Part shown: positions 5,038 through 63,177 of the stretch, one piece after another | Numbering within the stretch: the first letter of the stretch is position 1 | Layout of the letters: each line of letters opens with the position of its first letter | Source of the DNA: Candidatus Babeliales bacterium | GTDB taxonomy: Bacteria; Babelota; Babeliae; Babelales; JANWKD01 | Direction: 5' to 3' | Length of the DNA stretch: 64,000 bases | Assembly: GCA_963762115.1 (NCBI GenBank) | Contig: CAVXJH010000006.1 | Location: 192,001-256,000 of the forward strand | The notes under the pieces: generated by a model | The model's database searches: none | Seen by the model: the letters and a program-made list of their open reading frames with translations, nothing else | What the model was told of the DNA's origin: nothing | Translations under genes and position numbers: made by a program

Positions 5038-6813
5038 ATGAGAAATGGTATGCAAAAAAATTATCTTCGCACTATTGGATGCGGTTCAGTTGATGAAAAA
5101 ATGCTCAATACGACAATTCATCTTTCAGGTTGGGTTGATGGACGTCGTGATCATGGCGGTCTTATTTTTATTGATTTGCGTGATCGTAGCGGTTTAATGC
5201 AACTTGTTTTTAACCCTGTATTTTCAGCCCAAGCACATAAAAAAGCGCATGAATTGCGTTCAGAATTTGTTATTTCTGTAACGGGTACCGTTGTTGCACG
5301 AAGTGCTGAAACGGTGAATGAAGAGTTGCCTACGGGCAGATGGGAATTGCAAGTAACTGAATTAATGGTGTTAAATACCTCAAAAGCTTTACCTTTTTCT
5401 CTTGATGCTGATGATATTGATGAAGAATTGCGTTTAAAGTATCGTTATCTTGATTTGCGTCGTCCTGCTATGCAGCGACGTCTTGCTTTGCGCAATGATA
5501 TTATTTTTGCTATGCGTTATTTTTTGCAACATAACGGTTTTTATGAAATTGAAACACCAATTTTAACGAAAAATACTCCTGAAGGTGCGCGAGAATTTAT
5601 CGTTCCTTCACGGCTGCACCAAGGCAGTTTTTATGCATTACCGCAATCACCACAACTTTATAAACAACTTTTGATGGCAAGTGGTTTTGAGCGTTATTTC
5701 CAAGTTGCGCGTTGTTTCAGAGATGAAGATTTACGAGCAGATCGTCAGCCTGAGTTTACGCAGCTTGACATAGAAATGTCGTTTGTAAAAGAAAATGATA
5801 TTATTGGTCTTATTGAAAATTTATTTCAATTTTTATTCAAAAAGATTTTTGATGTTGAGTTGACGTTACCATTGCCTCGCATGAACTATGATGAGGCTTT
5901 TGCTTTATATGGTTCTGATAAACCTGATTTGCGTTTTGATTTAAAAATTGTAGATTTTACCTCTGTTTTTCAAAACACAGAACTAAAATTTTTGCGTGCT
6001 GTGCTTGATAAAGGCGGTAAAATTGGCGGGTTGCAGGTTAAGAGTAAAAACTTTACGCGTTCTGAATTAGATGCCTATGTTGAATGGGCTCGTAAAGCGG
6101 GTTCCTCTGGTTTATTGTGGGTTCGTGTTGGTGAAAATAACACACTCGAAGCACCTGTTGCTAAATTTTTCCCACCTGATTTTTTTAATCAGTTGAAAAC
6201 AATATGTCCTTCACTTGAACAAGGTGACACCTTATTCCTGCTTGCAGGTCAATATGATGAAGCATGGGTTCATATTGGCAGATTGCGCCTTGAATTAGCG
6301 CGTGATTTGGGAATTATTCCTGTTGGAAAGCTACATTTATCATGGGTTACTGATTTCCCTCTTTTTGAATATGATAAAGAATCGAAACAATGGAATTCCA
6401 TGCATCATCCCTTTACTTCTCCGCAAGAAGGTTGGGAAAAACTTGAGCCTGGTCAAATGAAAGCACGTGCTTACGATATCATATTAAATGGCGTTGAACT
6501 TGGCGGTGGATCAATTCGTATTTTTAATAGTGAAGTTCAAAATAAAGTTTTCCAATTGCTTGGTCTTGATGAAAAAGCAATGCATGATAAATTTGGCTTT
6601 TTATTAGAAGCACAAGAATATGGTTTCCCACCGCATGGCGGCATTGCTTTAGGACTTGATCGTTTGCTTATGTTATTAACAAATGCTACCTCAATTCGTG
6701 AAGTTATTGCGTTCCCTAAAACGGCACGTGGTTATGATCCTATGATGCAATCGCCAACCGGTGTTGATGATAAGCAGCTTAAAGAATATGGTTTGCAGAA
6801 GATCAAGAAATAA
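5038..6813 (+). CDS. aspS: Aspartate-tRNA ligase (start may be 5050)
   Basis: RRDHGGLIFIDLRD, ALPQSPQLYKQLLM, CFRDEDLRADRQPEFTQLD and PPHGGIALGLDR motifs. Confidence 0.98.
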   Translation: MRNGMQKNYLRTIGCGSVDEKMLNTTIHLSGWVDGRRDHGGLIFIDLRDRSGLMQLVFNPVFSAQAHKKAHELRSEFVISVTGTVVARSAETVNEELPTGRWELQVTELMVLNTSKALPFSLDADDIDEELRLKYRYLDLRRPAMQRRLALRNDIIFAMRYFLQHNGFYEIETPILTKNTPEGAREFIVPSRLHQGSFYALPQSPQLYKQLLMASGFERYFQVARCFRDEDLRADRQPEFTQLDIEMSFVKENDIIGLIENLFQFLFKKIFDVELTLPLPRMNYDEAFALYGSDKPDLRFDLKIVDFTSVFQNTELKFLRAVLDKGGKIGGLQVKSKNFTRSELDAYVEWARKAGSSGLLWVRVGENNTLEAPVAKFFPPDFFNQLKTICPSLEQGDTLFLLAGQYDEAWVHIGRLRLELARDLGIIPVGKLHLSWVTDFPLFEYDKESKQWNSMHHPFTSPQEGWEKLEPGQMKARAYDIILNGVELGGGSIRIFNSEVQNKVFQLLGLDEKAMHDKFGFLLEAQEYGFPPHGGIALGLDRLLMLLTNATSIREVIAFPKTARGYDPMMQSPTGVDDKQLKEYGLQKIKK

Positions 6814-6831: not shown

Positions 6832-8196
6832 CTATTTTTTTAAATGTTCATTAAGTAATTCTTGTATTTCAGGATAAAAGCTTGCCCTCTGAAGAGCGTC
6901 TTTTGTTATTTTAGCGCCTTTGGCTAATAACAGTTTTACCATTTCAGAATTATTTTTTAGTATTGCAAGACTTAATGCATCGATACCCTTATGATCTTGA
7001 ACATTTGGATCACCACCAAATTTGAGAAATTTTTTCACTTCTTCTAAAGAATTTTGTTCAATGATATACGGTAATATAAAACTTCCGTTTTTGTCTGGAT
7101 CATTAGGATTAGCACCAGCCTTGATTAAATATTTTATTGCTTTTGGACTATATAATGCTGCATATAATAATGCAGTACCACCAACTTTATTTTCGATATT
7201 AATATTAGCACCAGCACCAATCAGAGATTTTATTGCTTTTTGATTATTTTTGATTACTGCATACATTAATGCAGTTCTGCCTTTATTGTCTTGTGCATCG
7301 ATATTTTTTAATATTGCATCATTTTGTAGAAGAATTTCCACAGAATCGGGATTGCTTTCTGCTGCAAACATTAATGGAGTTTTACCTTCTTTATCTTTAC
7401 TATTAACTAATTTTTCAGAATCAAATAATAATTTTTTTGAATCAGAATCAATAAAGGGTTGTATGAGAGATGGATTAAATTTAGCGGCAAACATGAGTGG
7501 ATTTTGGCGATATTTATTAGTTTGATGCATATAAGCACCTTGCTTTAAAAACTTTTTAGCCAGTTTTGGCATATAGGCAATGGCTAAAGTAAAGGCAGAC
7601 CGAGCTGTAGTATTAAAATTACTTATTTCGTTTCTTATCTCGGATGAATTTTGTTTCAAAATTTTAAAGATACTTTTGGCAAGTTTTTCATCTTCGTGTT
7701 CAATTGCATTTTGTAAAGGAGTAATGCCGAAAATATCTGGTGAAGTAACATCAAGATTTTTGCCTTCTTTTTCTATTAAATAAAGGGCTGCATTGAGGAA
7801 ACCTTTTTCAATAAGGGCATTAAGAACGGTTCTTCCTCTTCGATCTTTTAGATTTGGATTAACTCCTAATGTTAAAAGATTTTCAACTTCTTGTGCAGAT
7901 TTTGCATTATGAAGTCTTGTTTGATCGAATGGTAGTTTTTTTTGGGCTTCAGCTTTTATCTCTTGCCTTACTTCTTCTGCCGGAATTGATTCTAAAAGTT
8001 CAGGTACATTTTCAAGCTCGGGTATTACTTCAATAAATTTTTGTTTAGCAATTTCTTTTAATGTTTTGATTGGTATTATTTTTTTTTCTTCTAACTTTTG
8101 CTTTTTAGCGGGAGATTCTTTTTTTTCTTCCATAGAAAAAAGTTCAAAAGATATAAAAAATAAGGGTAACGTGATATAGAAAATATTTTTTTTCAT
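6832..8196 (-). CDS. Exported ankyrin-repeat protein with NLS-like and BC-box-like N-terminal motifs
   Basis: Signal peptide, PAKKQKLE, KTLKEIAKQKF...IPAEEVRQEI, then multiple GxTPLMxAA...GAxxN repeats. Confidence 0.9.
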   Translation of the reverse strand: MKKNIFYITLPLFFISFELFSMEEKKESPAKKQKLEEKKIIPIKTLKEIAKQKFIEVIPELENVPELLESIPAEEVRQEIKAEAQKKLPFDQTRLHNAKSAQEVENLLTLGVNPNLKDRRGRTVLNALIEKGFLNAALYLIEKEGKNLDVTSPDIFGITPLQNAIEHEDEKLAKSIFKILKQNSSEIRNEISNFNTTARSAFTLAIAYMPKLAKKFLKQGAYMHQTNKYRQNPLMFAAKFNPSLIQPFIDSDSKKLLFDSEKLVNSKDKEGKTPLMFAAESNPDSVEILLQNDAILKNIDAQDNKGRTALMYAVIKNNQKAIKSLIGAGANINIENKVGGTALLYAALYSPKAIKYLIKAGANPNDPDKNGSFILPYIIEQNSLEEVKKFLKFGGDPNVQDHKGIDALSLAILKNNSEMVKLLLAKGAKITKDALQRASFYPEIQELLNEHLKK

Positions 8197-8225
8197 TGTT
8201 AATCCTTTTTAAGTTTTTTAATTAA

Positions 8226-9920
8226 TCAATCAAATGCTGATGCAAAGTTCTGAGCAATTAAATTGAATATTTCGACATTGCCTTGAGCTTTTTCAATTGA
8301 TTGATCAGTAATTTCTGCTCCACCTTCTAATAATGCCTTTATTATTTCTGGTTCATTTTTTTCTATAGCAATCTCTAAGGGAGTTTCGCTGCTTATTTTA
8401 TCTCTGAAGTTAGGATTTGCGCCAACTTTTAACATGTTTTTAATTATCTCTACATTATTTTCTCTAACAGCTTTTATCAAATAACTTCCCAAGAAAGGGA
8501 TTATCAATTCTTTGATTTCACGGTTACGGGCAGCAAGTGCAAGTGTTTTTTCAGTTATTTCTGCTCCATGTTCTAATAAAACTTTTACTATATTAGATTG
8601 ATCCTGGGCTATTGCCATAGTTAATGCATCAAGACCTTCATTATTTTTGCCATTAGGATCAGCACCAAATTCAAGAAGTTTTTTTACTGCTTCTGATGAA
8701 CCTTGAGATACAGCAGCTAATAAAGGAGTTTCGCCATTTGTACCTTTTTCATTAGGGTTGACACCAGCTTTAATGAGTGGTTCTATTGTATTAGGATTAA
8801 ATCGAGCAGCATGATATAACGCTGTTTCATTATCAAGATCTTTAATGTTAATATTGGCACCAGCATCAATGAGTAATTGTACTGCTTCAGTATTATTTTG
8901 TGCTGCTAACATCAATGCAGTTTCCCCCTTTTTGTTTTTAGCATGGATGTTAGCTCTAGCTTTAATAAGGGTTGGAATGAGGGATGGATTATATGTTGCT
9001 GCAAACATCAAGGGCGCTTCACCATATTGATTTTTTTCATTTACTGAAGCTCCTAAGCTAATAAAGTTATCAATAAGTTCAGGCATATAACGAATTGCTA
9101 GGGTAAATGCTGACCATTCAATTTTATTAGTGGTATTTAATGCAGCAGGTAATTTGATATTTTTTGCTTCTTGAGGAAGAAAAAGATAATAGCCTTTTGC
9201 CTCATCTTTCTTTGCTTTTAATTTTTTTTGTTCTTGTAGAATTTCAATGATAAGATTAACAAGATCTAGATCTTGTTTTTGTATTGCACGTTGTAAAGGT
9301 GTGACGGCATATTCATCAGGAGAACTTACATCAAGTCCATTTCCTTGTGTTGCTAGTAAATATGATTTTATTAAATGATGAATATTTTCTTCTGTTAGCT
9401 TCTCTAAAGGAATTGTCTGATAAGGTATTGCTGTAAGAGCAATTGATACTAAATGAAATGCTGCATTAAGATGGCCTTTATCAATAAGTGCATTTAAAGC
9501 AGTTTTGCCGCTTCGATCTTTTAAATTTGGGTCAACGCCAAGCGTCAAAAGATTTTCAACTTCTTGTTCAGACGTTGCATTATGAAGTCTGGTTTCTTCA
9601 AAGCACAATTTTTTTTGAGCTTCAGCTTTTATCGCTTGCCTTACTTCTTCTGCCGGAATTGATTCTAAAAGTTCTGGTACATTTTCAAGCTCGGGTATTA
9701 CTTCAATAAATTTTTGTTTAGCAATTTCTTTTAATGTTTTAATCTGAGGTGGTTTTGTTGATACCCTTCTTCGTTTAATGGGAGGTTGTTGAGGTTGTTT
9801 TTGTAGTAGGCATCCCTTTTCTTCTTCTTCAGGTTGTTTCCGTTTTCGAGACTCTTCCATTGAACAAAGTTCAAAAGATATAAAAAAGAGAAATAAAAGA
9901 ATAAAAAATAGTTTTTTCAT
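8226..9920 (-). CDS. Exported ankyrin-repeat protein, paralog of 6832-8196
   Basis: Signal peptide, RKRK and PPIKRRRV, a near-identical BC-box-like segment, and many ankyrin repeats. Confidence 0.9.
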   Translation of the reverse strand: MKKLFFILLFLFFISFELCSMEESRKRKQPEEEEKGCLLQKQPQQPPIKRRRVSTKPPQIKTLKEIAKQKFIEVIPELENVPELLESIPAEEVRQAIKAEAQKKLCFEETRLHNATSEQEVENLLTLGVDPNLKDRSGKTALNALIDKGHLNAAFHLVSIALTAIPYQTIPLEKLTEENIHHLIKSYLLATQGNGLDVSSPDEYAVTPLQRAIQKQDLDLVNLIIEILQEQKKLKAKKDEAKGYYLFLPQEAKNIKLPAALNTTNKIEWSAFTLAIRYMPELIDNFISLGASVNEKNQYGEAPLMFAATYNPSLIPTLIKARANIHAKNKKGETALMLAAQNNTEAVQLLIDAGANINIKDLDNETALYHAARFNPNTIEPLIKAGVNPNEKGTNGETPLLAAVSQGSSEAVKKLLEFGADPNGKNNEGLDALTMAIAQDQSNIVKVLLEHGAEITEKTLALAARNREIKELIIPFLGSYLIKAVRENNVEIIKNMLKVGANPNFRDKISSETPLEIAIEKNEPEIIKALLEGGAEITDQSIEKAQGNVEIFNLIAQNFASAFD

Positions 9921-10018
9921 GATGCGATACCTATTAAATTAATGATTTATTAAATTTTTTCTTTATAAATAATCTATAGGTATAATTTTAACAAATACGC
10001 TATTCAAATTGCAATAAT
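9866..10018. repeat. About 150-bp direct repeat (signal-peptide coding start plus upstream region), also at about 11091-11243
   Basis: aaagttcaaaagatataaaaaagag...ctataggtataattttaacaaat...tattcaaattgcaataat occurs in both places with few mismatches. Confidence 0.9.
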
Positions 10019-10048
10019 TAACTTTTTTATAATTAAATTATATGCGCC

Positions 10049-10140
10049 GTACTTTAATTTTTTCTATTTTCTTAACATATACTCTGTTATAATCTTTGCG
10101 TTATCATAGCTTTTTTAGAGAAAAAACAAGTCTGATTAAA
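10049..10140. repeat. Copy of the eno upstream spacer (about 11669-11760)
   Basis: tagcttttttagagaaaaaacaagt[c/a]tgattaaa and flanking similarity are shared. Confidence 0.85.
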
Positions 10141-10179
10141 CAACTTAAAGAATATGGTTTGCAGAAGATAAAGAAGTAA
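10137..10179 (+). repeat. Duplicated 3' end of aspS (KQLKEYGLQKIKK*)
   Basis: 39 of 43 nt identical to 6771-6813; all 4 differences are synonymous third-codon changes. Confidence 0.92.
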
Positions 10180-10182
10180 AAA

Positions 10183-11145
10183 TTACTTCTTTCTTTGTAT
10201 GTATTCATTAACTATTTCCCATAGTTCGGGATATTTATCTTTTTCGCGCATTACTCTATTTCTTGATCCAAGTGGTATTATAGCTCCTGCATTTATTAAG
10301 AGTTTTAGAGCGTTAGCATTGTTATTATTTATTGCTATTGCTGCAGCCTGAGAAGTTGTAATACTATTAATTTTTTTTGAATAAGGACATGTCCAGTATG
10401 AAGTTGTATTGGGATTAGCACCTAACTTAATTAAAAGTTCAACTAATTCTGGTAAATGTTGTATTGCTAAAGTAAGAGCAGATTCTTTTTGATTATTAAT
10501 ATTATTTATTGAATCAAGTTTATTTTGCTTTTGTAAAATAGATATAATTCTTTTTGCAAGTTCTAAATTTTTATGTAAAATTGCTCTTTGCAAAGGAGTA
10601 AAAACATCATTATCTGGTGTACTAACGTCTAAATTTAATAGACCACCTTTTTCATTTATTAAGTTAATTAAATGAAGAGCTTCATTATCATGTTCATTAT
10701 ATATAAGTGAATTTATAGCTGTTTTACCAGATCGATCTTTAATATTTGGATCAAAGCCTAAAGTAAGTGCAGTTTCAATTTCTTTCTCAGTTTGAGCATT
10801 ATGTAATCTTGTTGGAGCAAAAGGAAGTTCTTGTTGTGCTGCTTCTCTTATTTCATGTTTTAGTTCTTCTTCTGGAATTGATTCAATAAATTCTGATAAT
10901 TCTTCTATTTCAGGAGCTATCTCTGCAATCTTTTCAGCAGCAATTTGACGTAATGAAGGAACAGTTGTTCTTCTTCGTTTAATTCGAAGTTGTTGGCAGA
11001 CATTCTCTTGTTCTTGCTCTTTTTCTTTTTCAGGCTCTTTTCGCTTTCGAGATTCTTTTTGGTATTCTTCTTGCTGGCCTTCCATTGCACAAAGTTCAAA
11101 AGATATAAAAAAGAGGGATAAAAGAATAAAAAATAGTTTTTTCAT
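10183..11145 (-). CDS. Exported ankyrin-repeat protein, third paralog of the cluster
   Basis: Same signal peptide, RKRK/KRRR, VPSLRQIAAEKIA, TRLHNA and ankyrin repeats. Confidence 0.88.
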   Translation of the reverse strand: MKKLFFILLSLFFISFELCAMEGQQEEYQKESRKRKEPEKEKEQEQENVCQQLRIKRRRTTVPSLRQIAAEKIAEIAPEIEELSEFIESIPEEELKHEIREAAQQELPFAPTRLHNAQTEKEIETALTLGFDPNIKDRSGKTAINSLIYNEHDNEALHLINLINEKGGLLNLDVSTPDNDVFTPLQRAILHKNLELAKRIISILQKQNKLDSINNINNQKESALTLAIQHLPELVELLIKLGANPNTTSYWTCPYSKKINSITTSQAAAIAINNNNANALKLLINAGAIIPLGSRNRVMREKDKYPELWEIVNEYIQRKK

Positions 11146-11258
11146 GATACGATACCTATTAAATTAATGATTGATTTAATTTTTTCTTTATAAATAATCT
11201 ATAGGTATAATTTTAACAAATTTATTATTCAAATTGCAATAATATATTCTTTTTAGAA

Positions 11259-11648
11259 TTATTGAGAAGATTTAGATAAGGTTTTTAGTTTTTTCAAATA
11301 ATGCAAATGTTTGTTGTAATATTCATTATTTTGATTTGTTAATTGATGATACTCTTGAGCAAGGCATGAATTTAAAATGATCATGGCTGGAAGAGTAAGA
11401 GAATTATATTCTTCATGTTCTAAGTCATTCCTTCTTTTCTGATTGAGTTGTGTATATTCGTTGAATTTTTTAATGTTGCTTTTCGATAACGTATAGCATG
11501 ATAAAAATTGTTCATTATTATTGTTAATTTCTTGAAGGGTAGCAATAAGAGCTCGTTGAATAGATGTATTTTGATTTTGAATATGTATCTGTTCCATTGC
11601 GGTGCATAGCATAAAGCAAAAAAACACAATAAACATATTTCTTTTCAT
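11259..11648 (-). CDS. Hypothetical exported protein
   Basis: AAGGGA RBS; signal peptide ending TA-ME. Confidence 0.65.
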   Translation of the reverse strand: MKRNMFIVFFCFMLCTAMEQIHIQNQNTSIQRALIATLQEINNNNEQFLSCYTLSKSNIKKFNEYTQLNQKRRNDLEHEEYNSLTLPAMIILNSCLAQEYHQLTNQNNEYYNKHLHYLKKLKTLSKSSQ

Positions 11649-11793
11649 TGTTTTATCCCTTAAGTAGTGTACGTTAGTTTTTTCTAGTTGCTTAGCATAT
11701 ATTCTTTTATAATTTTTACATTATCTTAGCTTTTTTAGAGAAAAAACAAGTATGATTAAATAAAGTAAATGTGATGATATAAAGGGGTTCTTA

Positions 11794-13047
11794 ATGAAAA
11801 TAATAAAAATACAGGGAAGAGAAATTTTTGATTCTCGAGGATTTCCAACACTCGAATGTGAACTCACGTTAGATGACGGTTGTTCATTTATAGCATCAGT
11901 TCCTTCAGGAGCTTCAACGGGAATTCATGAAGCAATTGAATTGCGTGATAATGATGCGCAGCGATTATTTGGTAAGGGAGTATTAAAGTCGATTGATATT
12001 CTTGAAAATGTTATAGCTCCTGCCTTGATTGGTAATGCCCCACAAGTTTGTAGCATAGATCGATTTATGATTGATCTTGATGGAACGCCAAACAAAGCAC
12101 GATTGGGTGCAAACACCATTCTATCAGCAAGTATTGCGGTTCTAAAAGCGCAGGCGCATCTTGAACAGGTTGAGCTCTATGAATGTATCGCACACCTTTA
12201 TAATGCTGAAGCGGTTATGCTGCCTATTCCTCTTTTTAATATGATCAATGGTGGTGCACATGCAGATAATAATTTGCGTATACAAGAATTTATGGTTGCT
12301 CCTCTGGGTGCTAAAAATTTTAGGCATGCATTAGAACAAGCTTCGCTCGTATTCCATCATTTAAAACGATTACTTAAAGAAGCTGGCAAAACTGTTTCTG
12401 TTGGTGATGAGGGCGGATTTGCACCTCATTTTGAACATGAAGTAGAAGCGATCGATTTTCTCTTGAAAGCAATTGATGAGGTTGGTGATCAAGATATGTT
12501 TAGAATTGCCCTTGATGTTGCAGCATCAGAATTTTATAATGCACAATCTCGCACTTATTTGTGGCATAACAAAGAATATTCATCAACTGATATGATCGCT
12601 TTTTATCAAGAATTGCTTGCGTATTATCCAATTTATTCAATTGAAGATGGTCTTGCACAAGATGATTGGGATGGTTGGATGACATTGAATCGTACACTTG
12701 GTGAAACAACACAAATTGTTGGTGATGACCTTTTTGTTACTTCAAGTTCGCGCATAATTCACGGTGTAAAAACACATGCAGCAAATGCAGCAATAATCAA
12801 ACCCAATCAAGTTGGCACGGTTACTGAAACATTGCAAGCAATTCAAACGTGCCAAGAATATGGTATGGGCACGATTATTTCGCATCGTTCAGGAGAAACT
12901 GAAGATTCGTTTATTGCTGATCTTGCTGTTGGCACGAGTGCAGGTCAAATCAAAGCAGGAAGTTGCTCACGTGGTGAACGAATGGCAAAATATAATCGTC
13001 TTTTGCGCATTGAAGATCAACTCATTTATGGATTACTTGAGGGCTAA
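11794..13047 (+). CDS. eno: Enolase
   Basis: DSRGFPT, VPSGASTG, GDEGGFAP, SHRSGETED and GQIKAG...RGERMAKYN motifs. Confidence 0.98.
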   Translation: MKIIKIQGREIFDSRGFPTLECELTLDDGCSFIASVPSGASTGIHEAIELRDNDAQRLFGKGVLKSIDILENVIAPALIGNAPQVCSIDRFMIDLDGTPNKARLGANTILSASIAVLKAQAHLEQVELYECIAHLYNAEAVMLPIPLFNMINGGAHADNNLRIQEFMVAPLGAKNFRHALEQASLVFHHLKRLLKEAGKTVSVGDEGGFAPHFEHEVEAIDFLLKAIDEVGDQDMFRIALDVAASEFYNAQSRTYLWHNKEYSSTDMIAFYQELLAYYPIYSIEDGLAQDDWDGWMTLNRTLGETTQIVGDDLFVTSSSRIIHGVKTHAANAAIIKPNQVGTVTETLQAIQTCQEYGMGTIISHRSGETEDSFIADLAVGTSAGQIKAGSCSRGERMAKYNRLLRIEDQLIYGLLEG

Positions 13048-15789
13048 CAACGGATTATTTGAATCCTGCATAAGTTGTTTTAATCGTTCAGCACGATATT
13101 GCATAGCATTATTTACTTGCTGCATCCCATTTTTTTCGGGTATCGCGTTTTCATATTCTTTATAATCATGTTGTATTCCCGATTTAATAACTTTTTCTTG
13201 CGCATTTTCATTCTCAGGAATAGCATTTTCATATTCTGTGAAATCATGTTTAATGTTAGCTTGATTGAATTCTTGCTCTGGAACGGCAATTTCATCTTTG
13301 CATGTTGCAGCTTCTTCACAATCATAGGTGACAGGAATAGTCTTATTTGTTGCATTACATGTTGGTTTTATGATGCTGCAATAGCCAGGATCATTACACA
13401 TATCACGTTTATCACTGCAACGTGAGCCACGCGCTTTACTCTCAGAGTGAACGTTCCATTCATTTTTCATTTCATGATTAACAAAATTGCCAATAACGGT
13501 ATCTGCATAGGTGAGATTTGGTTTAAAGAACCAACGAGTGACAGGATCGCGTAATGTTTCAAAAGCAAGTTCTTCAGTAAGTTCATTTTTTGCATAACAT
13601 AATTTGTCTTTTGTATAGCTGCCAATGCCGCCTTTCACCTTTGGATACATGATGCGTGGTGAAATAAAAATCATCAGATTATTTTTTGTTTTATTATCTC
13701 CTTTTCGTTTGAAGAACCAACCAAAGATAGGAATTCTACTCAATAATGGTGTTTCATTTTCACTGATTGAATCATTGAGGCTAATTAAACCACCTAACGC
13801 TAAAACTTCTCCGTTACCCACATTGGCGTTTGTTTGTACTAAACGTGTTCTTCTATTATTATTTTCGGCAAGAAATTGTTCAACTTTTACAATAATATTT
13901 AAATTAATATTATTATTATCAACACTGATACGTGGCAAAATATCAATTGAGGTAGCCGCAACAACATCATCTTTTTGGACTTTAATACCACCAGTTTGAC
14001 TTACTGCATCACCATCAACCAATCGTTGTTCGGCGATGGTGATTGAAGCTTGTCGATTATCTGCAGTCGTTATGAATGGTTGTGCAAGTAAGGTGCTGTT
14101 GGTATAAGCATCGAGAACCTGCCAAACACTCCAAATGCCGCTGTTATCAGGATCATTGAATGAGATTACCATTGATCCAACACCGCCTTCGGTGGCAAGA
14201 TTGAAGTTGCCGGTTTCGCCTTCTTGAATGCGCAATAAGTTTGCCATAAGTGCATGATTTGGATAGAACGGAATACTACCATTTGCAGTGTCTATACTGC
14301 CATTACCAGGACGAAGCACCGGAGAATCGATCATTGCTGTTTGAAAATCAACATTATCTGACCCTACGTTAAATAAACTACCTTTATTTCTCATTTGGCT
14401 GCCAAGGATTTTATCATTATTGAGCGTTAAGTCGACAACAAGAACTTCAATGGCAACTTGTGGTTGCGGTTTATCAAGGTCTTCAATGAGTGCCTTAATA
14501 CGAATCCAATCTTGTTTGCGCGCAGCAACAATAAGACGATTACCCGCTTGTTCAATACCTTGCGTTTCACCACTCACCGATTCACTACCATGAACTGCAG
14601 AAGGCGTCTCGCTTGGCGTGATTTGTGTGGCTTCGCTTTTTTTCGGTGCTTTTATGCTAAGCGTTGATTTTTCTGCAACAATGATGACATCTTGGAAATC
14701 TCGCTTTGGTCCTACTGTTTGACCTTGTGTTTGTGCTTGTCCTGTTACTGATTTGCTGATTAAATCTTGTAATATTCCTTGGAAATCTTCCGCATTAAGA
14801 TATTGCAAATCATAAATATGTAAGATTGATTCACCTGTTTCTAAGGGATGATCAATATATTTTATAATAAAATCTTTTACTGTTCTGATTGCCTTTATTG
14901 ATCCCATCACGACGATGGCATTTGTGCGTCCGAGTGCTAAGACTTTGGTGTTAGGGGGAAAGTAAGAAACTTGTTTGGTTGTTTCTCGGGTAGGGGTTGC
15001 ACTTGGTGTTGCTACAAATAATTTATTTTTAAAAAGATCTTCAACAAATGCGGCTTCTGTATAAAAAAGTGGAACAACTTCAATAGCATCGGGAATACCC
15101 TCTAAATCAAGTTCTTTGATAATAATCATTGCTGCACGAATATTGTCGGCTTTATCAGTTATAATAAGTGCATTTGTTTTATCATCACGTTTTATATCAG
15201 CCATAGGAGAAAGCATTGATTTTAAGATCGCTTCAATATTGGTACGTGTTGAATCATTGCTTAATTTTAGATTAGCAAGATAAAAAATTGTTTGTATGAC
15301 AGTGCCATCATTTGGCAAATCTTCAATTTGTGGATTTTTATAAACAGTAAGGGGTTCACGTTTAATATCATTGCTTATTTTAGTGAGTATCAGAAGATCA
15401 TCGTGGGGAATCCAAGAATAACCAAGAAATTCGAGAATTTTATTAACTTCTCGCCATGCTTGATTAAGAGTGACTTTTTTGGGTAGTTGATACGTTAACT
15501 TGGTGGTTAATGCATTGGGACTTTGTGGTTGGGGTAAAATAATATTAACTTTTTTTTCAGCTGCATATTCATTAATGACATCAGAAAGGGGAATATCTTT
15601 ATAGTTAAAAGAATATAGTTTTTTGGGTGCTTCTTGTGGAGCATCAGCTTTTGATTCGCTCGTATTTGGTTGATTTAATTTTTGTTCAAGAACTTTTTTT
15701 ACTGCCGTTAGCTCTTCAGTTGCTTTAGCATATATCGCACTATGTGCTAGCAGAATAAATAATGCTTGATAGATTATTTTAGTTTTCAT
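13033..15789 (-). CDS. gspD: Type II secretion secretin GspD (second copy) with Cys-rich C-terminal extension
   Basis: N-domain repeats (TNALII, NRLIV), LDKPQPQVAIEVLVV, and LGGLI...PLLSRIPIFGWFF...LMIFISPRI. Confidence 0.9.
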   Translation of the reverse strand: MKTKIIYQALFILLAHSAIYAKATEELTAVKKVLEQKLNQPNTSESKADAPQEAPKKLYSFNYKDIPLSDVINEYAAEKKVNIILPQPQSPNALTTKLTYQLPKKVTLNQAWREVNKILEFLGYSWIPHDDLLILTKISNDIKREPLTVYKNPQIEDLPNDGTVIQTIFYLANLKLSNDSTRTNIEAILKSMLSPMADIKRDDKTNALIITDKADNIRAAMIIIKELDLEGIPDAIEVVPLFYTEAAFVEDLFKNKLFVATPSATPTRETTKQVSYFPPNTKVLALGRTNAIVVMGSIKAIRTVKDFIIKYIDHPLETGESILHIYDLQYLNAEDFQGILQDLISKSVTGQAQTQGQTVGPKRDFQDVIIVAEKSTLSIKAPKKSEATQITPSETPSAVHGSESVSGETQGIEQAGNRLIVAARKQDWIRIKALIEDLDKPQPQVAIEVLVVDLTLNNDKILGSQMRNKGSLFNVGSDNVDFQTAMIDSPVLRPGNGSIDTANGSIPFYPNHALMANLLRIQEGETGNFNLATEGGVGSMVISFNDPDNSGIWSVWQVLDAYTNSTLLAQPFITTADNRQASITIAEQRLVDGDAVSQTGGIKVQKDDVVAATSIDILPRISVDNNNINLNIIVKVEQFLAENNNRRTRLVQTNANVGNGEVLALGGLISLNDSISENETPLLSRIPIFGWFFKRKGDNKTKNNLMIFISPRIMYPKVKGGIGSYTKDKLCYAKNELTEELAFETLRDPVTRWFFKPNLTYADTVIGNFVNHEMKNEWNVHSESKARGSRCSDKRDMCNDPGYCSIIKPTCNATNKTIPVTYDCEEAATCKDEIAVPEQEFNQANIKHDFTEYENAIPENENAQEKVIKSGIQHDYKEYENAIPEKNGMQQVNNAMQYRAERLKQLMQDSNNPLLALK

Positions 15790-15800
15790 TATTTAATTCC

Positions 15801-16379
15801 TTAGCTCTCAATTTCTTTTGGTGTTTCTACTTTTGGTTCAAGGGTCGCAATAGTTAGTTTTACATTGATAGCATTTGGATTTGTTGTTGAGCGTTCAACT
15901 TCAACATCCTTTGTATAAATTCTTTCTTCAAGTTCAATAGCATGGAGCAATTCGCTCATTTTTTTTGTATTCATATTGGTAAGATTAGCATACAATGTCC
16001 ACTCAGTATAATATCCATCCAGAACTTCTTGTGACATAGTTTCAACGTCTTGTGTTTTATTACTCATGAGTCCTAATTTTTGGAGTAGTTGATCGAAATA
16101 TTGAGAAATTTTGAAGTCTTTCTCTTTTGCTAATATCGCATCAACACCTACTTGTAGTTTTTTGACCAAATCATAACGACTGACCAATTCGCGTACGGCA
16201 ACGCGATGTTTATTCACTATAGCTATGCGAGAACGTAATGAGGAAATATTTCTATAATAAAGAAATACAATGAGTCCCATAAGAGCAATCAAAACACCAA
16301 AAGCAATAAGAATGTAATTTCTAAATTCTTTTTGATCCCAGTTATCGATATAGTTCTTTAACGAAGTTAAGATATTCAT
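15801..16379 (-). CDS. gspM: GspM/PilO-like inner-membrane platform protein
   Basis: Single N-terminal TM segment, coiled coil and ferredoxin-like C-terminus; lies between the gspL-like gene and gspD. Confidence 0.65.
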   Translation of the reverse strand: MNILTSLKNYIDNWDQKEFRNYILIAFGVLIALMGLIVFLYYRNISSLRSRIAIVNKHRVAVRELVSRYDLVKKLQVGVDAILAKEKDFKISQYFDQLLQKLGLMSNKTQDVETMSQEVLDGYYTEWTLYANLTNMNTKKMSELLHAIELEERIYTKDVEVERSTTNPNAINVKLTIATLEPKVETPKEIES

Positions 16380-18013
16380 TGAGTAACACCATTTTTCTTT
16401 AAAGGCATTTGCAAGGTGAATTTTGTAGTTTGTAAACTTGGTATAGTGAGGAATAAGTTAGTATTTTTTAACTCTCTTTCAAGTATTTTGAGTGCGTCAA
16501 AATCTTTTACTTCACCTTCAAGAGTAAGACTACTTGGTTCTTGTTGACTAATGATTAATTTTGTTATTTTAAGCCCAAGAGCATTTCTATCAATCGCAGC
16601 ACTGAGTTTTTCTAAATACTTTAAGAACGATACTCTTGTTTGCTGTGAGAATGCAAACCAAATAGCTTCTTCTTCGGTAACTTTTTCTTCTGCTTCGCGT
16701 ATGCCAACAGCTACTGATTTTGCATTAGTAAGCCCAAGTTTTTTTAAAGTTGAAAGTACTTCTTGCTCGGATGCTGCTACTTCTTTTTTTACCGTTTTGG
16801 TACGGAGAAAATTATTAACAAGCAGACCGATAAAAATACAACCAATAAGGAAAAAGCTCGTAATAATTTGTTTATTAAAAAGAGAATTTTCTGATGGTGC
16901 GAATTCTTGCCTGAGTAGATTGAACTCTTGCATGCGAGGTGTTATGAGTGCCGTACTTAAGCTTACTATGGTAGATTGCGGTATTTTTTTGCCATTTTTA
17001 ACAGAAAATCCCGGAACGTCCAAAAGAGCATTTATAGCGAATAATTCAGTTGAAATACCCAATTGTTCATTAAAAAATGAAACCATGTTGGGTAATTCTG
17101 CACCATCACCTAATAATAAAATGTTATCAAGTTTTTTATGGTTTGGATTTTGTGCAATAAATGAATCTAAAGTAAATCGAATTTCATTAAGATATGAGGT
17201 TACAACAGTATGAATAGCCTTACTATAAGGATCTTCAGTGTTTTTTTCCAAACCAAATCGAATAATTTTTTCTAACGTATCTTGTGGTGTTGCCGACAAA
17301 GATTGAGCAATTGTTTTTGCCCAGTTGGTGATTCCTTTTGGCAAGGTGCGAAGTAAGGTGAGTTGTCCATCAATGACGTAGGCAATGCTGGTAAAGTTAT
17401 AGCCGAGGTCAATAATTGCTGTTGCGCCTTTTGATGATGCATAACGAGGAATTATTGTGTAGAGGCCATATAAATCAAAAAGATCAATGGTAATAGTGTT
17501 TGGCGTAACTCCTGCAGCTTGAAAATAACTTACATGCTCAATAATATGTTGTTTTTGCAGAGCACACACAAGAACTTCAGAAGTATGTTGTTCAGGATTA
17601 CTTTTTGTAATAATAAAATCAATGATTGCATCTGAGGTAGGAAATGGCAAATATGGTTCAATTTCATAATTAAGAACCATGCTAATTTTATCACTCTCTA
17701 AAAAAGGTAGTGTTAACCCTTTAAAAATAGCATTTGAGCTTGCAAGTGAAGTGCGTATTAAATCATAACGATCAGCAGTTGCAAGAATTTTTTTTATGGC
17801 CTGTGCTACACGATCAGCAAAGGGAATAGACATATCTGTTGTTAATGATTCAGTAAAAAAACGTTCTAAAGTAACTTTATTTCCGTGCATCAGTACTTGT
17901 GTAGCATGTACCGATGATTTGTTAATAGAAAATCCTATTATTCTTTGTGAAATAAGATAATTGGTACCGAATTTTTCAGGAATAAAAATATTTTTTACAA
18001 GATTAGCTATCAT
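16376..18013 (-). CDS. gspL: GspL / PilM-PilN-like fused assembly protein
   Basis: Actin-like N-domain (IIDLG, ILLLGDGA), FNLL motif before a TM segment, and periplasmic domain with LTLEG. Confidence 0.75.
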   Translation of the reverse strand: MIANLVKNIFIPEKFGTNYLISQRIIGFSINKSSVHATQVLMHGNKVTLERFFTESLTTDMSIPFADRVAQAIKKILATADRYDLIRTSLASSNAIFKGLTLPFLESDKISMVLNYEIEPYLPFPTSDAIIDFIITKSNPEQHTSEVLVCALQKQHIIEHVSYFQAAGVTPNTITIDLFDLYGLYTIIPRYASSKGATAIIDLGYNFTSIAYVIDGQLTLLRTLPKGITNWAKTIAQSLSATPQDTLEKIIRFGLEKNTEDPYSKAIHTVVTSYLNEIRFTLDSFIAQNPNHKKLDNILLLGDGAELPNMVSFFNEQLGISTELFAINALLDVPGFSVKNGKKIPQSTIVSLSTALITPRMQEFNLLRQEFAPSENSLFNKQIITSFFLIGCIFIGLLVNNFLRTKTVKKEVAASEQEVLSTLKKLGLTNAKSVAVGIREAEEKVTEEEAIWFAFSQQTRVSFLKYLEKLSAAIDRNALGLKITKLIISQQEPSSLTLEGEVKDFDALKILERELKNTNLFLTIPSLQTTKFTLQMPLKKNGVTQ

Positions 18014-20829
18014 GTTCTCACCTCGTTATCTTTAGCGTTATCGATGGGTAAGAACTCCATAATCGATTTTCGTTTTTTTTGTTGAACAGAAGGCCGTTCT
18101 CTTTGTTCATTTTGCGTTATCGCGACCGCATGGGATGACACTGCTGCAGCTTCTTCATCAGCTTCAAGTGCTTTTACGGCACGTGGTTTTTCTTGTTGCA
18201 CAAATTCAATATCTTCTTGTTCAGGTTTTTTTTGTGCTTGTTGTGCTTCTAATTTTTCTTTTTTTGCTTCTTGTTCAACGGCTAATGCATTTACATCTTC
18301 TTCATCTTCTAAATCTTCTTGTTCAAGAGGTTCTTCTAATGGGGCTTGTTCTTCATCTTCTAAGAGTGCGTTTAATTTGTCTATCGAAGACACACAATTT
18401 GATTTAGCCAGACAACGTGGCTCTCGAGCGCAGGTATATTTATCTTTGCACGTTTGACCAGTGCAACGACAACGATAAAGATCACTATCAAAAACATCAT
18501 TTATGCGACAATCAATAACCTTTCCTGGTTCCAAGCAAGGGCTTTGTGGATGCAGGAAGAATTCAACTTTTTCTGTATCTTCATCGGGTCTATCTTTGAA
18601 GAACCAACGATGAATTGGGTCACGTTGTTCATAAGGTTGTCTCATATCACGTAAAGCATTTTTAGAATAATCGGCTTTTTTCACGGTGTAATTGCCAATA
18701 CCGCCTTGAGCCATTGGTTGTACGATTTGTGGTGAAATAAAGACTAATAAATTACTCTTATTTTTTGCTTTATTTTTATTTTTAAAAAACCAACCAAGAA
18801 TGGGAACTTTGCCAAGCAAAGGAACTTCAAAAGTTGCATCACTATTTTGATTTTGTAATAAGCCGCCGATGGCAAGAATTTCTTTATTAGCAACATTTGC
18901 ACTTGTTTTAATTGTTTTAGTATTTCTTGTTGCACTTGTTGCTAGAGCATCAGTAAAGGTATCAACGTCAATTCTAATTTCAAGATTAATTATGCCATCA
19001 TTATTAATTTGTGGGGTAATTTCCACCGTTAAATTTGCTGATAAATCAGCTTGTGTTGCGACCGTAGCATTACTTTGAACCGTACCCGTTGATACACGTC
19101 TCGTTTCACCAAGCGAAACACGTGCGGTAAACTTGTTGGTTGTTGTTAAAAATGGGTATGAGACAAGACTTGAATAGGTATAGGTTTCAAGCATTTTAAA
19201 GAGGGCCCAAACACCACCAGCAATGTTGCCGCCAATAGAAAGTAATGTTGTGCCGGGGTTTTGACCTTGTGCTAATGAAATTAAATCTCCCATAAGTCCA
19301 CCACTTGCATTTGTTATTATTCCTGATGTGCCGCCGCCAGTGATGCCAGAATTTTGAAATTCAACATTTCTTGTTCCTAAGCTGCCACCAAAACCGGGAG
19401 TTTTTGTTCGTATTTGTGATCCTAATGATTTAAGTTTGGTGGTATTAACGTTAACGACCAATACTTCAATAGCAATTTGTGGCTGTTTTACATCGAGTTG
19501 TTCAATGATAGTGCGAACCTTTAAATAATCTTCTTTTTCAGCACGAATAAGCAATCTGTTGCCGGAGGGCTCAGAAATGAATTGCATTTGTCTAAAAAAT
19601 TTATTGCCATCGCGAACGCCGCCATATATTGCAGCTTTTGAGTTAGGAGCAAATGCGGTGACTTGATTGAGAATTTGTGCAATATTATCCGAATTGGCAT
19701 ATTGCAAATCATAAACATAGAGAGGTGAATATGGTTGTTGTAGTTCTGTATCAACATAATTAAGAATAAAATCTTCAACTTTTTCTATGCTTGCGCGGGT
19801 ACCAAGAATAATAAGTGCATTGGTGCGCGGTTCGGCAATAAGTTTTGTATCTTCAGGAAAATAAGCTGTTGTTGATTGTTTTTTTGCGCCGAATAATCGT
19901 GCTGCTATGCCAGTTTTTTGCTCTTCTCGCGCAACAAGATTTTCATAAAGTGATACAACATCTTCGGCATTAGCATGTTTTAATTTTAACACTGAAAGTG
20001 CTTCGGGCATACTAACATTATCAAGTTCGCTGAGTATTGCCATTATTGAACGAATGTTTGATGATTTATCTGAAAAAATTAAAGCATTTAAGTCTTCAAA
20101 AGGTTGTACGATACCACTTTTGCTTTTGAAATCTTGCGCTATGGTGTTAAGTGTTGCCAATTGACTGTTTTCAACAAAATACACAAAACGAATTTTAGTA
20201 TCGTTGTCGGGTAAATCGCGCCACTTAACCCCAATAAAAACGGGAAGTGGTGCTTGATTGGCAACATCAGCAGGTAAAACAGTATAAGAAATAGGATGAC
20301 CATCAAGATATTGATTTGGCACGAGGGTTACACCAAAAAGATCGAGAAAACTTAAAAACAAATCCCAAACTTGACGTTTAGTCATTGATTTTTGTGTTTT
20401 ATAGGTAATAAGATTGCCGGCAACTTTACCTATGGCAGGGGGGGTAAAAGCATCGCCCGTTAAAAAATTAATTTTGAATATTTTTTTTATCCAATCTAAA
20501 AGATTGAGAATATCGGTTTTATCAAGATTAACTTCAATCGTATCATTGATGTTATGTATTGCTTCTCGTGGCATAAGTGAATTTAAATCTTTTTGAAGAT
20601 GAGCTTCATCATGATCATCAATCGTGCCATCTTTTAATTTTTGTACTTCTTTTTCTTCTTTTTTTGCTATTCGTTTTTTTTGTTTTCTTTTTTTTTGACT
20701 CTCAAGAGAATCATGATCAACTTTTTGTTTATTAGTTTCAATTGCACCATGCATGGTAAAGAATGAATGCCACATGATACTATGAAAATAAAGAGTGATT
20801 AAACAAATGAGTAAGGATCTTTTTTTCAT
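18010..20829 (-). CDS. gspD: Type II secretion secretin GspD with Cys-rich and acidic C-terminal extension
   Basis: LKHANAED, EPRTNALIILG, LDVKQPQIAIEVLVV, and IGGLL...VPLLGKVPILGWFF...LLVFISPQIV. Confidence 0.92.
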   Translation of the reverse strand: MKKRSLLICLITLYFHSIMWHSFFTMHGAIETNKQKVDHDSLESQKKRKQKKRIAKKEEKEVQKLKDGTIDDHDEAHLQKDLNSLMPREAIHNINDTIEVNLDKTDILNLLDWIKKIFKINFLTGDAFTPPAIGKVAGNLITYKTQKSMTKRQVWDLFLSFLDLFGVTLVPNQYLDGHPISYTVLPADVANQAPLPVFIGVKWRDLPDNDTKIRFVYFVENSQLATLNTIAQDFKSKSGIVQPFEDLNALIFSDKSSNIRSIMAILSELDNVSMPEALSVLKLKHANAEDVVSLYENLVAREEQKTGIAARLFGAKKQSTTAYFPEDTKLIAEPRTNALIILGTRASIEKVEDFILNYVDTELQQPYSPLYVYDLQYANSDNIAQILNQVTAFAPNSKAAIYGGVRDGNKFFRQMQFISEPSGNRLLIRAEKEDYLKVRTIIEQLDVKQPQIAIEVLVVNVNTTKLKSLGSQIRTKTPGFGGSLGTRNVEFQNSGITGGGTSGIITNASGGLMGDLISLAQGQNPGTTLLSIGGNIAGGVWALFKMLETYTYSSLVSYPFLTTTNKFTARVSLGETRRVSTGTVQSNATVATQADLSANLTVEITPQINNDGIINLEIRIDVDTFTDALATSATRNTKTIKTSANVANKEILAIGGLLQNQNSDATFEVPLLGKVPILGWFFKNKNKAKNKSNLLVFISPQIVQPMAQGGIGNYTVKKADYSKNALRDMRQPYEQRDPIHRWFFKDRPDEDTEKVEFFLHPQSPCLEPGKVIDCRINDVFDSDLYRCRCTGQTCKDKYTCAREPRCLAKSNCVSSIDKLNALLEDEEQAPLEEPLEQEDLEDEEDVNALAVEQEAKKEKLEAQQAQKKPEQEDIEFVQQEKPRAVKALEADEEAAAVSSHAVAITQNEQRERPSVQQKKRKSIMEFLPIDNAKDNEVRT

Positions 20830-20842
20830 TTTTATAATCCGT

Positions 20843-21982
20843 TTAAGTTCTAAGTGGTACAGAATTCATAAGCATATTTCTTTGTCTATCACCGGTTGAT
20901 CCGTACTGTACAATATCGCGCTTTTGTCTCATGCGTAACTCGTCTAAAGTTGGTGCAAATTGTTGCCGTTGACGTAAAATTTCGATTCTTTCTGCTTCAA
21001 TCTGCTCGGCTGATTTTATTGGAAGGCCAGAAGTTTCTTTTCCTGGCGTCGTTGCCGTTTTTTCAATTGATTGTAACGTGTAGTGTAGCATAATTTCTTG
21101 ATTATTTCTCATGAGAGTAATGTTGATAGTATCGCCATTATTCATAGCAATTATTTTTTGATAGATTTCGAATCGCGAATCGGTTGTAGTAGAAGGAATA
21201 TTGTTAATTGAGGTAATAATATCACCTTGTTGTAATCCTAAGGCAAGACCTATTGATTTGGGCTGCAAAGCGCCAACGCGGCAACCAATACTTTTACCTT
21301 GCTTATACACAGTAATTAAATTAAATGAGTCAATACACTGACTTAAATTCGAAATGTGTTTTATAAAACTCATTGGATCAACTGCATAGGAATTTTCTCC
21401 CGTTTTTTGTACAACTGAGGTCCAATCATTTGGAGCAAGTAATTGTTGATCAAGTTCTGCATCATATTGATTAACATATAGTGTTTCTTGTTGACCATTT
21501 GAACGGATGAGGATTATTTTATTTCTTAAAATTCTAATTAATTGAGCATCTTCAATTTTATCGCCAATCATATAATTTTTTGCCGTAGTTGATTTTGTGT
21601 CTTGAATAATGGCGATATTTTCTGTTTCATTATTCAAGGTAATGATTCCCTTAAGCGTGATTTGAAGGGGTTCTAGAAATTTTGGTGGCGATGCAATAGG
21701 CACTCTTACCGGTTGTGGCATTGGTGGTTCAGGAATGGCGATTCTTGTTTCAACGGGAGCAAGTATAGGAGAAGGTTGTTGATACGTGCCAAAAAGATCA
21801 TTCATATAAATCTTACTTAAATCAAGTCCTGAAACATCTTTTTTAGGAGGTTTAACCTCGGATTCTGGTTTTAAGCCTGCACGCTTTGGCATTGTTGGCG
21901 CAGACAACATTATAAAGCCTATAACGATAAAAAATAACAATAATAATGCGTCATTAAGCAGCCAAAAGGGATGTTTCATCAA
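20843..21982 (-). CDS. gspC: Type II secretion protein GspC (HR plus PDZ domains)
   Basis: N-terminal TM segment, Pro-rich linker, LKGI...AII...GDKI HR domain, PDZ motif LGLQQGDIITSIN; first gene before gspD. Confidence 0.85.
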   Translation of the reverse strand: MMKHPFWLLNDALLLLFFIVIGFIMLSAPTMPKRAGLKPESEVKPPKKDVSGLDLSKIYMNDLFGTYQQPSPILAPVETRIAIPEPPMPQPVRVPIASPPKFLEPLQITLKGIITLNNETENIAIIQDTKSTTAKNYMIGDKIEDAQLIRILRNKIILIRSNGQQETLYVNQYDAELDQQLLAPNDWTSVVQKTGENSYAVDPMSFIKHISNLSQCIDSFNLITVYKQGKSIGCRVGALQPKSIGLALGLQQGDIITSINNIPSTTTDSRFEIYQKIIAMNNGDTINITLMRNNQEIMLHYTLQSIEKTATTPGKETSGLPIKSAEQIEAERIEILRQRQQFAPTLDELRMRQKRDIVQYGSTGDRQRNMLMNSVPLRT

Positions 21983-61594: not shown

Positions 61595-61966
61595 TTAAAC
61601 GGGTATGCCGGTTTCTTTCAACAATTCGGATGGTACTTTGCCATTCAAACCTTGATGCGGCCGATGTTCATTGTGATAGAAATTATATCCAAGAACAGCA
61701 TCTTTTAATTCATCGATTGTGTTAAAGATGGATCCTTCAATAACTTCATCATCAAAAGAACGCCAAAATCTTTCAATTTTTCCATTTGTTTGTGGTCTAT
61801 AAGGCAAAGTTCTTCGATGTTTAATCGCAAAATGAAGTAGCAATCGTTCAAAAGGATGATTTTTTAATTTTTCTGGCGTTGAACAAAACTCAGCACCATT
61901 ATCTGTCAGAGCTTCATCAAAGGTGATATTATATCGTTGGTTCATATGTAAAATAATATCCATCAT
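61595..61966 (-). pseudogene. IS481 transposase, C-terminal part
   Basis: LTDNGAEF, PYRPQTNGKIERF and HNEHRPHQGL (integrase core); in frame with the N-part once IS110 is removed. Confidence 0.92.
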
Positions 61967-62013
61967 AGTGATTGTGTTAAAAGTCAAATATTTTTTAATA
62001 AAGCTAAACAATA

Positions 62014-62955: not shown

Positions 62956-62959
62956 AAAT

Positions 62960-63163
62960 ACCTCTGGCTTGTAGACATGCGAGATCGTATGTACTTGATA
63001 CGTCTCTAGTGATTGTTCGAGGTCATTTTTGTATAAGCTGATAGTCTCAAACTATGACACGGTCCTTTGAGACCAAGCTTGACACGAGATCTATCAGCTT
63101 CTCAAACAATTAATTTCAAAACAACTGATCATAAATTAACAAAATTTAGCTTTAAAATCATTT
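62960..63163 (-). ncRNA. Bridge RNA with target-binding and donor-binding loops
   Basis: Target loop closed by aagctgatag/ctatcagctt; donor loop closed by acctc/gaggt. Donor guides ACAAUCACU and UACAAG match the element's own circle junction. Right target guide GUCAUAG matches the insertion site. Confidence 0.88.
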
Positions 63164-63177
63164 TGATTTAACATACA

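Follow-up and report, generated by a model that had tools for sequence, protein, structure and literature searches.

Predicted exported ankyrin proteins of a Babeliales bacterium carry a VHL/SOCS-box-like module behind the signal peptide

What an intracellular bacterium might do in its host with a tandem array of apparently exported ankyrin-repeat proteins is the question raised by a locus in Candidatus Babeliales bacterium, a member of the phylum Babelota (Dependentiae; order Babeliales) whose assembly, GCA_963762115.1, spans 1.53 Mb at 34% GC. The locus lies in a stretch of 64,000 nucleotides (contig CAVXJH010000006.1, positions 192,001 to 256,000), termed the window, to which coordinates refer unless another contig is named. 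Within the window, three tandem ankyrin paralogs (genes 1 to 3; Table 1) are located between aspS and eno, beside a type II secretion-like cluster. Cultured members of the phylum live as intracellular parasites in amoebae and flagellates (PMC4378268, PMC6561590). The favored reading, held with modest confidence, is that the three proteins are exported substrate adaptors for Elongin BC–cullin ubiquitin ligases of the host, which they would engage through a VHL/SOCS-box-type module in order to present ankyrin-bound host proteins. The observations concern sequence anatomy, from which we infer each step of binding and localization.

The box between signal peptide and ankyrin repeats

The three open reading frames (ORFs) and every motif quoted in a first-pass annotation of this DNA were found where it had placed them, on the minus strand. 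Each protein opens with a signal-like hydrophobic stretch (best 10-residue Kyte-Doolittle mean 2.2, 3.4 and 3.1 for genes 1, 2 and 3), as called by a purpose-made hydropathy heuristic rather than SignalP, and continues into ankyrin repeats that score above Pfam cut-offs. The annotated order of signal peptide and ankyrins holds in all three, as does the placement of the box ahead of the ankyrins, the reverse of the order in eukaryotic ASB proteins. Neither a lipobox nor, by the same heuristic, a transmembrane segment after the signal stretch was found in the three proteins. AlphaFold, run on a 9-row family alignment (mean predicted local distance difference test score, pLDDT, 73.5), gave a low-confidence N-terminal stretch, three helices across the box and then ankyrins; the isolated box was likewise modeled as three helices, with a pLDDT of 77. 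A fold search with the whole-protein model returned ankyrins and DARPins and nothing else, and residues 50-200 of the gene 3 protein, used as a query, found one other protein among 558 candidates.

The box consists of a BC-box-like helix followed by a proline-capped helix that resembles a cullin box. The published BC-box consensus, (S/T/P)Lxxx(C/S/A)xxx-phi, where phi is a hydrophobic residue (PMC3355856, PMC6232478), is matched by all eight box-bearing members of the ankyrin family, which have T, S or P at position 1 and A or S at position 6. In the family, the spacer between the two motifs measures 16-17 residues, within the published range of 8-23 (PMC3355856).

Several observations weigh against an adaptor role. 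The canonical BC-box cysteine is replaced by alanine or serine in the ankyrin family, the Cul2 box (phi-P-x-x-phi-x-x-x-phi) is exact in none of the eight members, all of which fit a version with one extra residue, and the Cul5 motif LPphiP is absent from all eight. The Pfam models SOCS_box, VHL_C and Elongin_A have no match anywhere in the genome, even at E 10, and the Pfam SOCS, VHL and F-box families have none in the three proteins at E up to 1. Searched against the PDB, profiles of the module pick up no VHL, SOCS or Elongin A chain. A search of 1.84 billion representatives gave 17 matches, and those inspected were genes from the training set, close relatives and two repeat proteins. PDB profile matches to REV1, NPR1, CagY repeats and FliG were dismissed as not meaningful. 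Fold comparison was uninformative: a 54-residue model of the box gave no Foldseek hit under E 3.9 and a best VIA Z of 3.9, to unrelated chains, and a query of the ESM Atlas gave a single match at 0.75, under the useful range. Additionally, signal peptides are very common in Dependentiae, at 44% of coding sequences (PMC6561590), so delivery to the host cytosol is an assumption. Because all eight members deviate from the Cul2-box consensus by a single residue, the three genes are not filed here as VHL-box or ASB proteins, yet they most likely act like them.

The same pattern, in which the BC half fits throughout the family and the cullin half is uniformly one residue off, would also suit a module that binds Elongin BC without forming an active ligase, whether as a decoy that ties up Elongin BC, as a protein stabilized by it or as a nuclear mimic of Elongin A. 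Legionella LicA, which binds Skp1 and forms no active ligase, offers a precedent (PMC13720258). This explanation is nevertheless improbable, given that the proline-capped motif is kept at fixed spacing in all eight box-bearing members and that poxvirus ANK/BC proteins recruit Cul2 despite having no cullin box (PMC6232478).

Nuclear targeting, which the first-pass annotation extended to all three proteins, is plausible for two of them. Genes 2 and 3 match a strict nuclear localization signal (NLS) pattern that occurs in 3/580 other signal-peptide proteins and 1/519 other proteins, whereas the case for gene 1 is weak, its patch matching only the loose pattern K(K/R)x(K/R), found in 44/580 other signal-peptide proteins. 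The basic clusters of genes 2 and 3 are separated by 19-20 residues, more than the 10-12 of a classical bipartite NLS. Paired clusters of a similar kind are present in a related genome (G004) and in two paralogs of a same-genus genome (G001). An NLS as a general trait of the module was rejected: of 19 carriers, only two have the strict motif, and both belong to this array.

The module elsewhere in the genome and the phylum

Beyond what the first-pass annotation noticed, the module is genome-wide and order-wide. About 20 of the 599 signal-peptide genes of the genome carry it directly after the signal peptide, and inspection by eye placed it ahead of ankyrin or WD40 domains in 12 Babeliales genomes, which belong to 4 families. 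Motif scans followed by selection by eye yielded 16 other genes of the genome with an S/T/P-L helix and a proline-capped helix behind the signal peptide, to which two were added later. Six of the 16 have the canonical BC-box cysteine; by Pfam, five have ankyrin and three beta-propeller matches, the remaining eight being without an informative match. Two further signal-peptide ankyrin proteins in the window (49544-50737 and 52647-54119, plus strand) have an F-box-like LPxEL and no BC helix; they rank 3 and 16 under a held-out profile of the module and have no Pfam F-box match.

Of 61 related genomes, 4 contain the ankyrin family itself, and all 4 come from the same taxonomic family as this one. 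At E 0.01, a profile of the module matched 22 of the phylum's 261 genomes, 8 of which had contributed rows to its training set. In 20 regions around further matches, there were 19 matches over 12 bits, 4 seemingly spurious and 15 with the full module, in each case within the first 60 or so residues and behind a signal-like start. When the family box was compared by hhalign with 13 boxes from other genomes, the probability was 85.6 and the score 28.9, with a one-residue gap after the proline, and 30 column shuffles scored at most 12.7. Furthermore, the Pfam SOCS_box model exceeds its cut-off in one of the 261 genomes (G138), in a gene with a signal peptide, box and ankyrins that the own-genome module profile had already picked up. 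The G138 box, which is one of the 13, covers positions 1-38 of 39 of the model at 24.5 bits, over the cut-off, and the whole protein scores 20.5 bits, under it. The exact Cul2-box consensus is present in 18/21 boxes outside the ankyrin family, a set chosen partly by motif. The cullin-adaptor reading of the first-pass annotation thus gains indirectly from the BC consensus and from homology to the module of exported ankyrin and WD40 proteins, one of which passes the SOCS_box cut-off, and loses from the one-residue Cul2 shift and the missing LPphiP. Also in G138 (G138:C1:852000-859000), tandem exported genes (L034, L046, L050, L052) have an apparent BC plus LP module at their C-termini, and one also has, by eye, a BTB/Skp1-like stretch.

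These comparisons add to the opposing side as well. The full BC consensus occurs in only 12 of the 21 non-family boxes, and a profile of the 13 foreign boxes recognizes genes 3, 2 and 1 weakly, at ranks 10, 14 and 23 of 1118 (E 0.028, 0.096 and 0.71). The BC-box pattern alone is at chance level (48/599 signal-peptide N-termini; shuffled mean 40.8), and the regular expression by itself was rejected as evidence on account of this background in the genome. Published patterns only, without tuning, give 6/599 versus 5/519 other N-termini (shuffled mean 1.9), and none of the three genes belongs to the 6. A BC + LPxE pattern tuned on these very genes is found in 13/599 signal-peptide N-termini versus 2/519 other N-termini and 2/378 downstream windows (shuffled mean 0.45, maximum 3 in 200). 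Since untuned patterns are barely enriched, it is the tuned pattern, together with hold-out tests, that carries the statistics.

The background frequency of the BC pattern, the slight enrichment of the published patterns and the lack of a PDB or Pfam match to the module in the three genes all speak for a module unrelated to host cullins, a repeat-domain N-cap or a secretion or chaperone tag that fits the consensus by chance; the place directly behind the signal peptide would suit a secretion tag. Such an explanation appears unlikely, however. A full-length G001 paralog has the signal peptide, basic patch and ankyrins without the box, the module precedes unrelated folds and is once found near a C-terminus, one homolog is a Pfam-level SOCS box, and only a small fraction of signal-peptide proteins (about 20/599) carries it. 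Another G001 paralog keeps the box and lacks the NLS-like patch. As read from these sequences, the box is a movable unit that can be gained, lost or moved and is not needed as a cap, because it is absent from a G001 paralog, precedes ankyrin or WD40 domains and lies near the C-terminus in one ankyrin protein. An ASB-like order is seen in the ankyrin protein at G000:C3:305828-307285 (L216) of this genome, which has a signal peptide, ankyrins and then a BC-box-like helix near the C-terminus.

Skp1_POZ domains were found in 46 of the 261 Babelota genomes, 45 of them over cut-off, and in 0/14 controls. The proteins inspected (L063-L074, L217, L218) mostly consist of a signal peptide and a Skp1 core, often with an LP motif, joined to WD40, ankyrin or leucine-rich-repeat-like repeats, and apparently represent one-piece cullin adaptors; a literature search found no description of Skp1-domain fusions in Babelota. 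Two such loci lie in the genome studied here, at G000:C3:380015-381307 (L217) and G000:C3:33816-34391 (L218). Within G000:C3:32330-34391, the 191-aa Skp1-domain ORF of L218 has a 401-aa ORF behind it on its own strand, beta-propeller-like by eye and without a Pfam match; the two are possibly one gene in two pieces. Skp1-like or Elongin C-like relatives were not found on viral contigs. A non-animal-type Elongin C sequence matches Elongin C at E 5.5e-29, versus 1.6e-6 for Skp1.

About as improbable as an inactive Elongin BC binder is an F-box of divergent type with Skp1 and Cul1 as its partners, the upstream BC-like helix being incidental or a relic of a Skp1–F-box fusion. The pattern phi-P-x-x-phi-x-x-x-phi is common to the F-box and the Cul2 box (PMC6232478, PMC3355856), N-terminal F-boxes are established in Chlamydiae effectors (PMC4209131), the Skp1-domain fusions have by eye a similar helix and LP motif, and several genes of this genome with LPxE and no BC helix have scores under the held-out profile similar to those of the three genes. 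Against an F-box, all members have the conserved S/T/P-L helix 16 residues upstream of their proline; moreover, neither the Pfam F-box nor the F-box-like models match these genes, and profile comparison with Skp1-fusion segments fell short of significance (probability 0.5 and 1.9). The latter comparison also gives no support to the idea that the module descends from Skp1 fusions through loss of the core.

A proposed mechanism and its precedents

As adaptors for an Elongin BC–cullin ligase, the proteins would be exported by the Sec pathway, with cleavage of the signal peptide ahead of 'ME', and then released through the neighboring type II secretion system (T2SS). Importin-dependent entry into the nucleus would follow for genes 2 and 3, and less surely for gene 1. 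Helix 1 of the box would fill the groove of Elongin C and the proline-capped helix would touch Cul2 or Cul5, a Cul2-like contact being the likelier because LPphiP is absent. The variable ankyrins would pick different host targets, which would then be ubiquitinated, and gene conversion may hold the docking module uniform.

N-terminal VHL boxes occur in ZYG11, PRAME and APPBP2, and bacterial F-box effectors are substrates of type III or type IV secretion systems. ASB proteins and the VHL-box receptors of cullin-RING ligase (CRL) 2 resemble the Babeliales proteins in having a BC box, a proline-capped hydrophobic helix 8-23 residues further on and a repeat domain as substrate binder (PMC3355856, PMC4878042). 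Unlike the N-terminal Babeliales box, that of eukaryotic ASB proteins is a C-terminal SOCS box with LPphiP, and the Babeliales Cul2-box spacing is one residue off that of VHL-box receptors.

An N-terminal SOCS box ahead of ankyrins is already known from a virus. The MGF505-1R family of African swine fever virus has a VHL/SOCS box at the N-terminus and predicted ankyrin repeats and co-immunoprecipitates with EloB and Cul5; co-immunoprecipitation with overexpressed EloC was not obtained (PMC13342108). The likeness is one of description. MGF505 proteins come from a virus and are produced in the cytosol of the host; their spacer is short and their BC box has a cysteine, whereas the Babeliales proteins are bacterial, with signal peptides, NLS-like patches, a 16-residue spacer and alanine or serine. 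The orthopoxvirus ANK/BC proteins (ECTV 010) are likewise ankyrin proteins of a pathogen and use a BC box of the same consensus to recruit Cul2, but they are viral, have the BC box at the C-terminus and have no cullin box (PMC6232478).

Among bacteria, a parallel is provided by F-box effectors (Legionella AnkB and LegU1, Ralstonia GALA, Agrobacterium VirF, Neochlamydia NEX1), which are exported CRL adaptors with an N-terminal box and repeats and are expanded in parasites of protists (PMC13720258, PMC4209131). They use Skp1–Cul1, whereas the predicted adaptor for the Babeliales proteins is Elongin C and the predicted route Sec/T2SS. Listeria InlC is also a secreted bacterial repeat protein, for which BC- and cullin-box-like motifs were proposed in a discussion section; Cul2 and Cul5 turned up in its interaction screen (PMC6918085). 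It differs in being a single protein, treated as a ubiquitinated substrate, with putative cullin boxes in its last 33 residues, and the BC-box idea is a suggestion only (PMC6918085). For Babela, secreted ankyrins and one F-box protein have already been described. In a 2026 review of bacterial ubiquitin effectors, the section on CRL adaptors covers F-box proteins only, and the words Elongin, SOCS and BC box do not occur in its text (PMC13720258). A full-text literature search, thin on subscription papers, found no demonstrated bacterial BC-box adaptor and no mention of one for Babelota; in that literature, the Elongin BC–cullin route is demonstrated for viruses and only suggested for bacteria.

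A wider proposal is more tentative and slightly doubtful. Babelota may hold a whole exported repertoire of Elongin BC–cullin receptors beside the one-piece Skp1 adaptors, this genome having about 20 receptors, whose target-binding domains are ankyrin, WD40 or other; delivered by Sec/T2SS, and with this tandem family aimed at nuclear targets, they would be the first bacterial class to hijack CRL2/CRL5. If Elongin C were bound, bacteria would join viruses in exploiting the Elongin BC–cullin arm, and part of the many unexplained secreted ankyrin and WD40 proteins of Dependentiae would acquire a testable function. The module would then be one that standard Pfam models overlook and a source of many natural Elongin-recruiting adaptors, whose targets could hint at protist defenses against intracellular bacteria.

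History of the array and its surroundings

The near-identity of the box DNA in two otherwise diverged genes, reported in the first-pass annotation, was recovered (125/129), with the range in gene 2 one base off the quoted 9612-9740 (Table 1). Box DNA of genes 1 and 2 is 96% alike, compared with 81% for gene 2 and its G004 counterpart, and the proportion of synonymous differences (pS) between genes 1 and 2 is 0.14 in the box, 0.48 over the 44 codons that follow and 0.58 over the rest of the genes. Because synonymous sites in the two boxes are near-identical too, we infer a recent gene conversion atop ordinary purifying selection. Of the two causes offered by the annotation, conversion or selection, these pS values favor the first and rule out selection alone. 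Across genomes, the module has a proportion of nonsynonymous differences (pN) of 0.12-0.23 against a pS of 0.43-0.75 (gene 3 excluded), and purifying selection on it is about as strong as on the first ankyrin repeat.

Gene 2 appears to be a mosaic, since it shares its box with gene 1 and its upstream DNA and signal-peptide codons with gene 3. Between genes 2 and 3, a copy of the eno-upstream region is joined to a copy of the aspS tail, which is read as a tandem-duplication junction and suggests that the array grew by tandem duplication of the aspS–eno interval. The same slot in G001 holds four paralogs.

Table 1. Features of the array and its neighborhood, in window coordinates
Feature	Coordinates	Strand	Remarks
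Gene 1 (P0001, 454 aa)	6832..8196	-	Signal peptide, weak NLS-like patch, box module, ankyrin repeats
Gene 1 predicted Sec signal peptide	8134..8196	-	About residues 1-21; sequence, hydropathy heuristic
Gene 1 PAKKQKLE, loose monopartite NLS-like motif	8089..8112	-	Loose pattern only
Gene 1 BC-box-like helix TLKEIAKQKF	8035..8064	-	
Gene 1 cullin-box-like motif IPAEEVRQEI	7957..7986	-	One residue longer than Cul2 consensus
Putative conversion tract	7940..8068	-	125/129 nt identical to 9613-9741
Gene 2 (P0002, 564 aa)	8226..9920	-	Signal peptide, bipartite NLS-like patch, box module, ankyrin repeats
Gene 2 RKRK-(20 aa)-KRRR NLS-like region	9762..9848	-	Similar patches in relatives
Gene 2 BC-box-like helix TLKEIAKQKF	9708..9737	-	
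Gene 2 cullin-box-like motif IPAEEVRQAI	9630..9659	-	
Region upstream of gene 2 plus its signal-peptide codons	9854..10028	-	92% identical to 11079-11253 (gene 3); 157/173 in second comparison
Inferred tandem-duplication junction	10049..10179	+	Eno-upstream copy (11669-11769, 85%), then copy of last 43 nt of aspS (6771-6813, 91%)
Gene 3 (P0003, 320 aa)	10183..11145	-	Signal peptide, bipartite NLS-like patch, box module, ankyrin repeats
Gene 3 RKRK-(19 aa)-KRRR NLS-like region	10966..11049	-	Low-confidence N-terminal part of model
Gene 3 BC-box-like helix SLRQIAAEKI	10927..10956	-	
Gene 3 cullin-box-like motif IPEEELKHEI	10849..10878	-	
Type II secretion-like cluster	13033..21982	-	Two GspD-like secretins, PilM-like, GspC-like; candidate export route; every match under curated cut-offs

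Both GspD-like secretins of the type II secretion-like cluster have long C-terminal extensions that are in part Cys-rich. Next to the array, positions 11259-11648 (minus strand) encode a 129-aa signal-peptide ORF without an informative Pfam match, and the matching slot in G001 contains a small exported ORF on the same strand as the array. Elsewhere in the genome (G000:C3:39310-40503), a 397-aa protein has, by eye, repeated C2H2-like zinc-finger motifs and basic patches and is a candidate nuclear effector. Near the end of the window (61595-63801, minus strand), an integrase-core transposase is apparently split by an IS110-like transposase ORF (62014-62955), both labels being assigned by eye.

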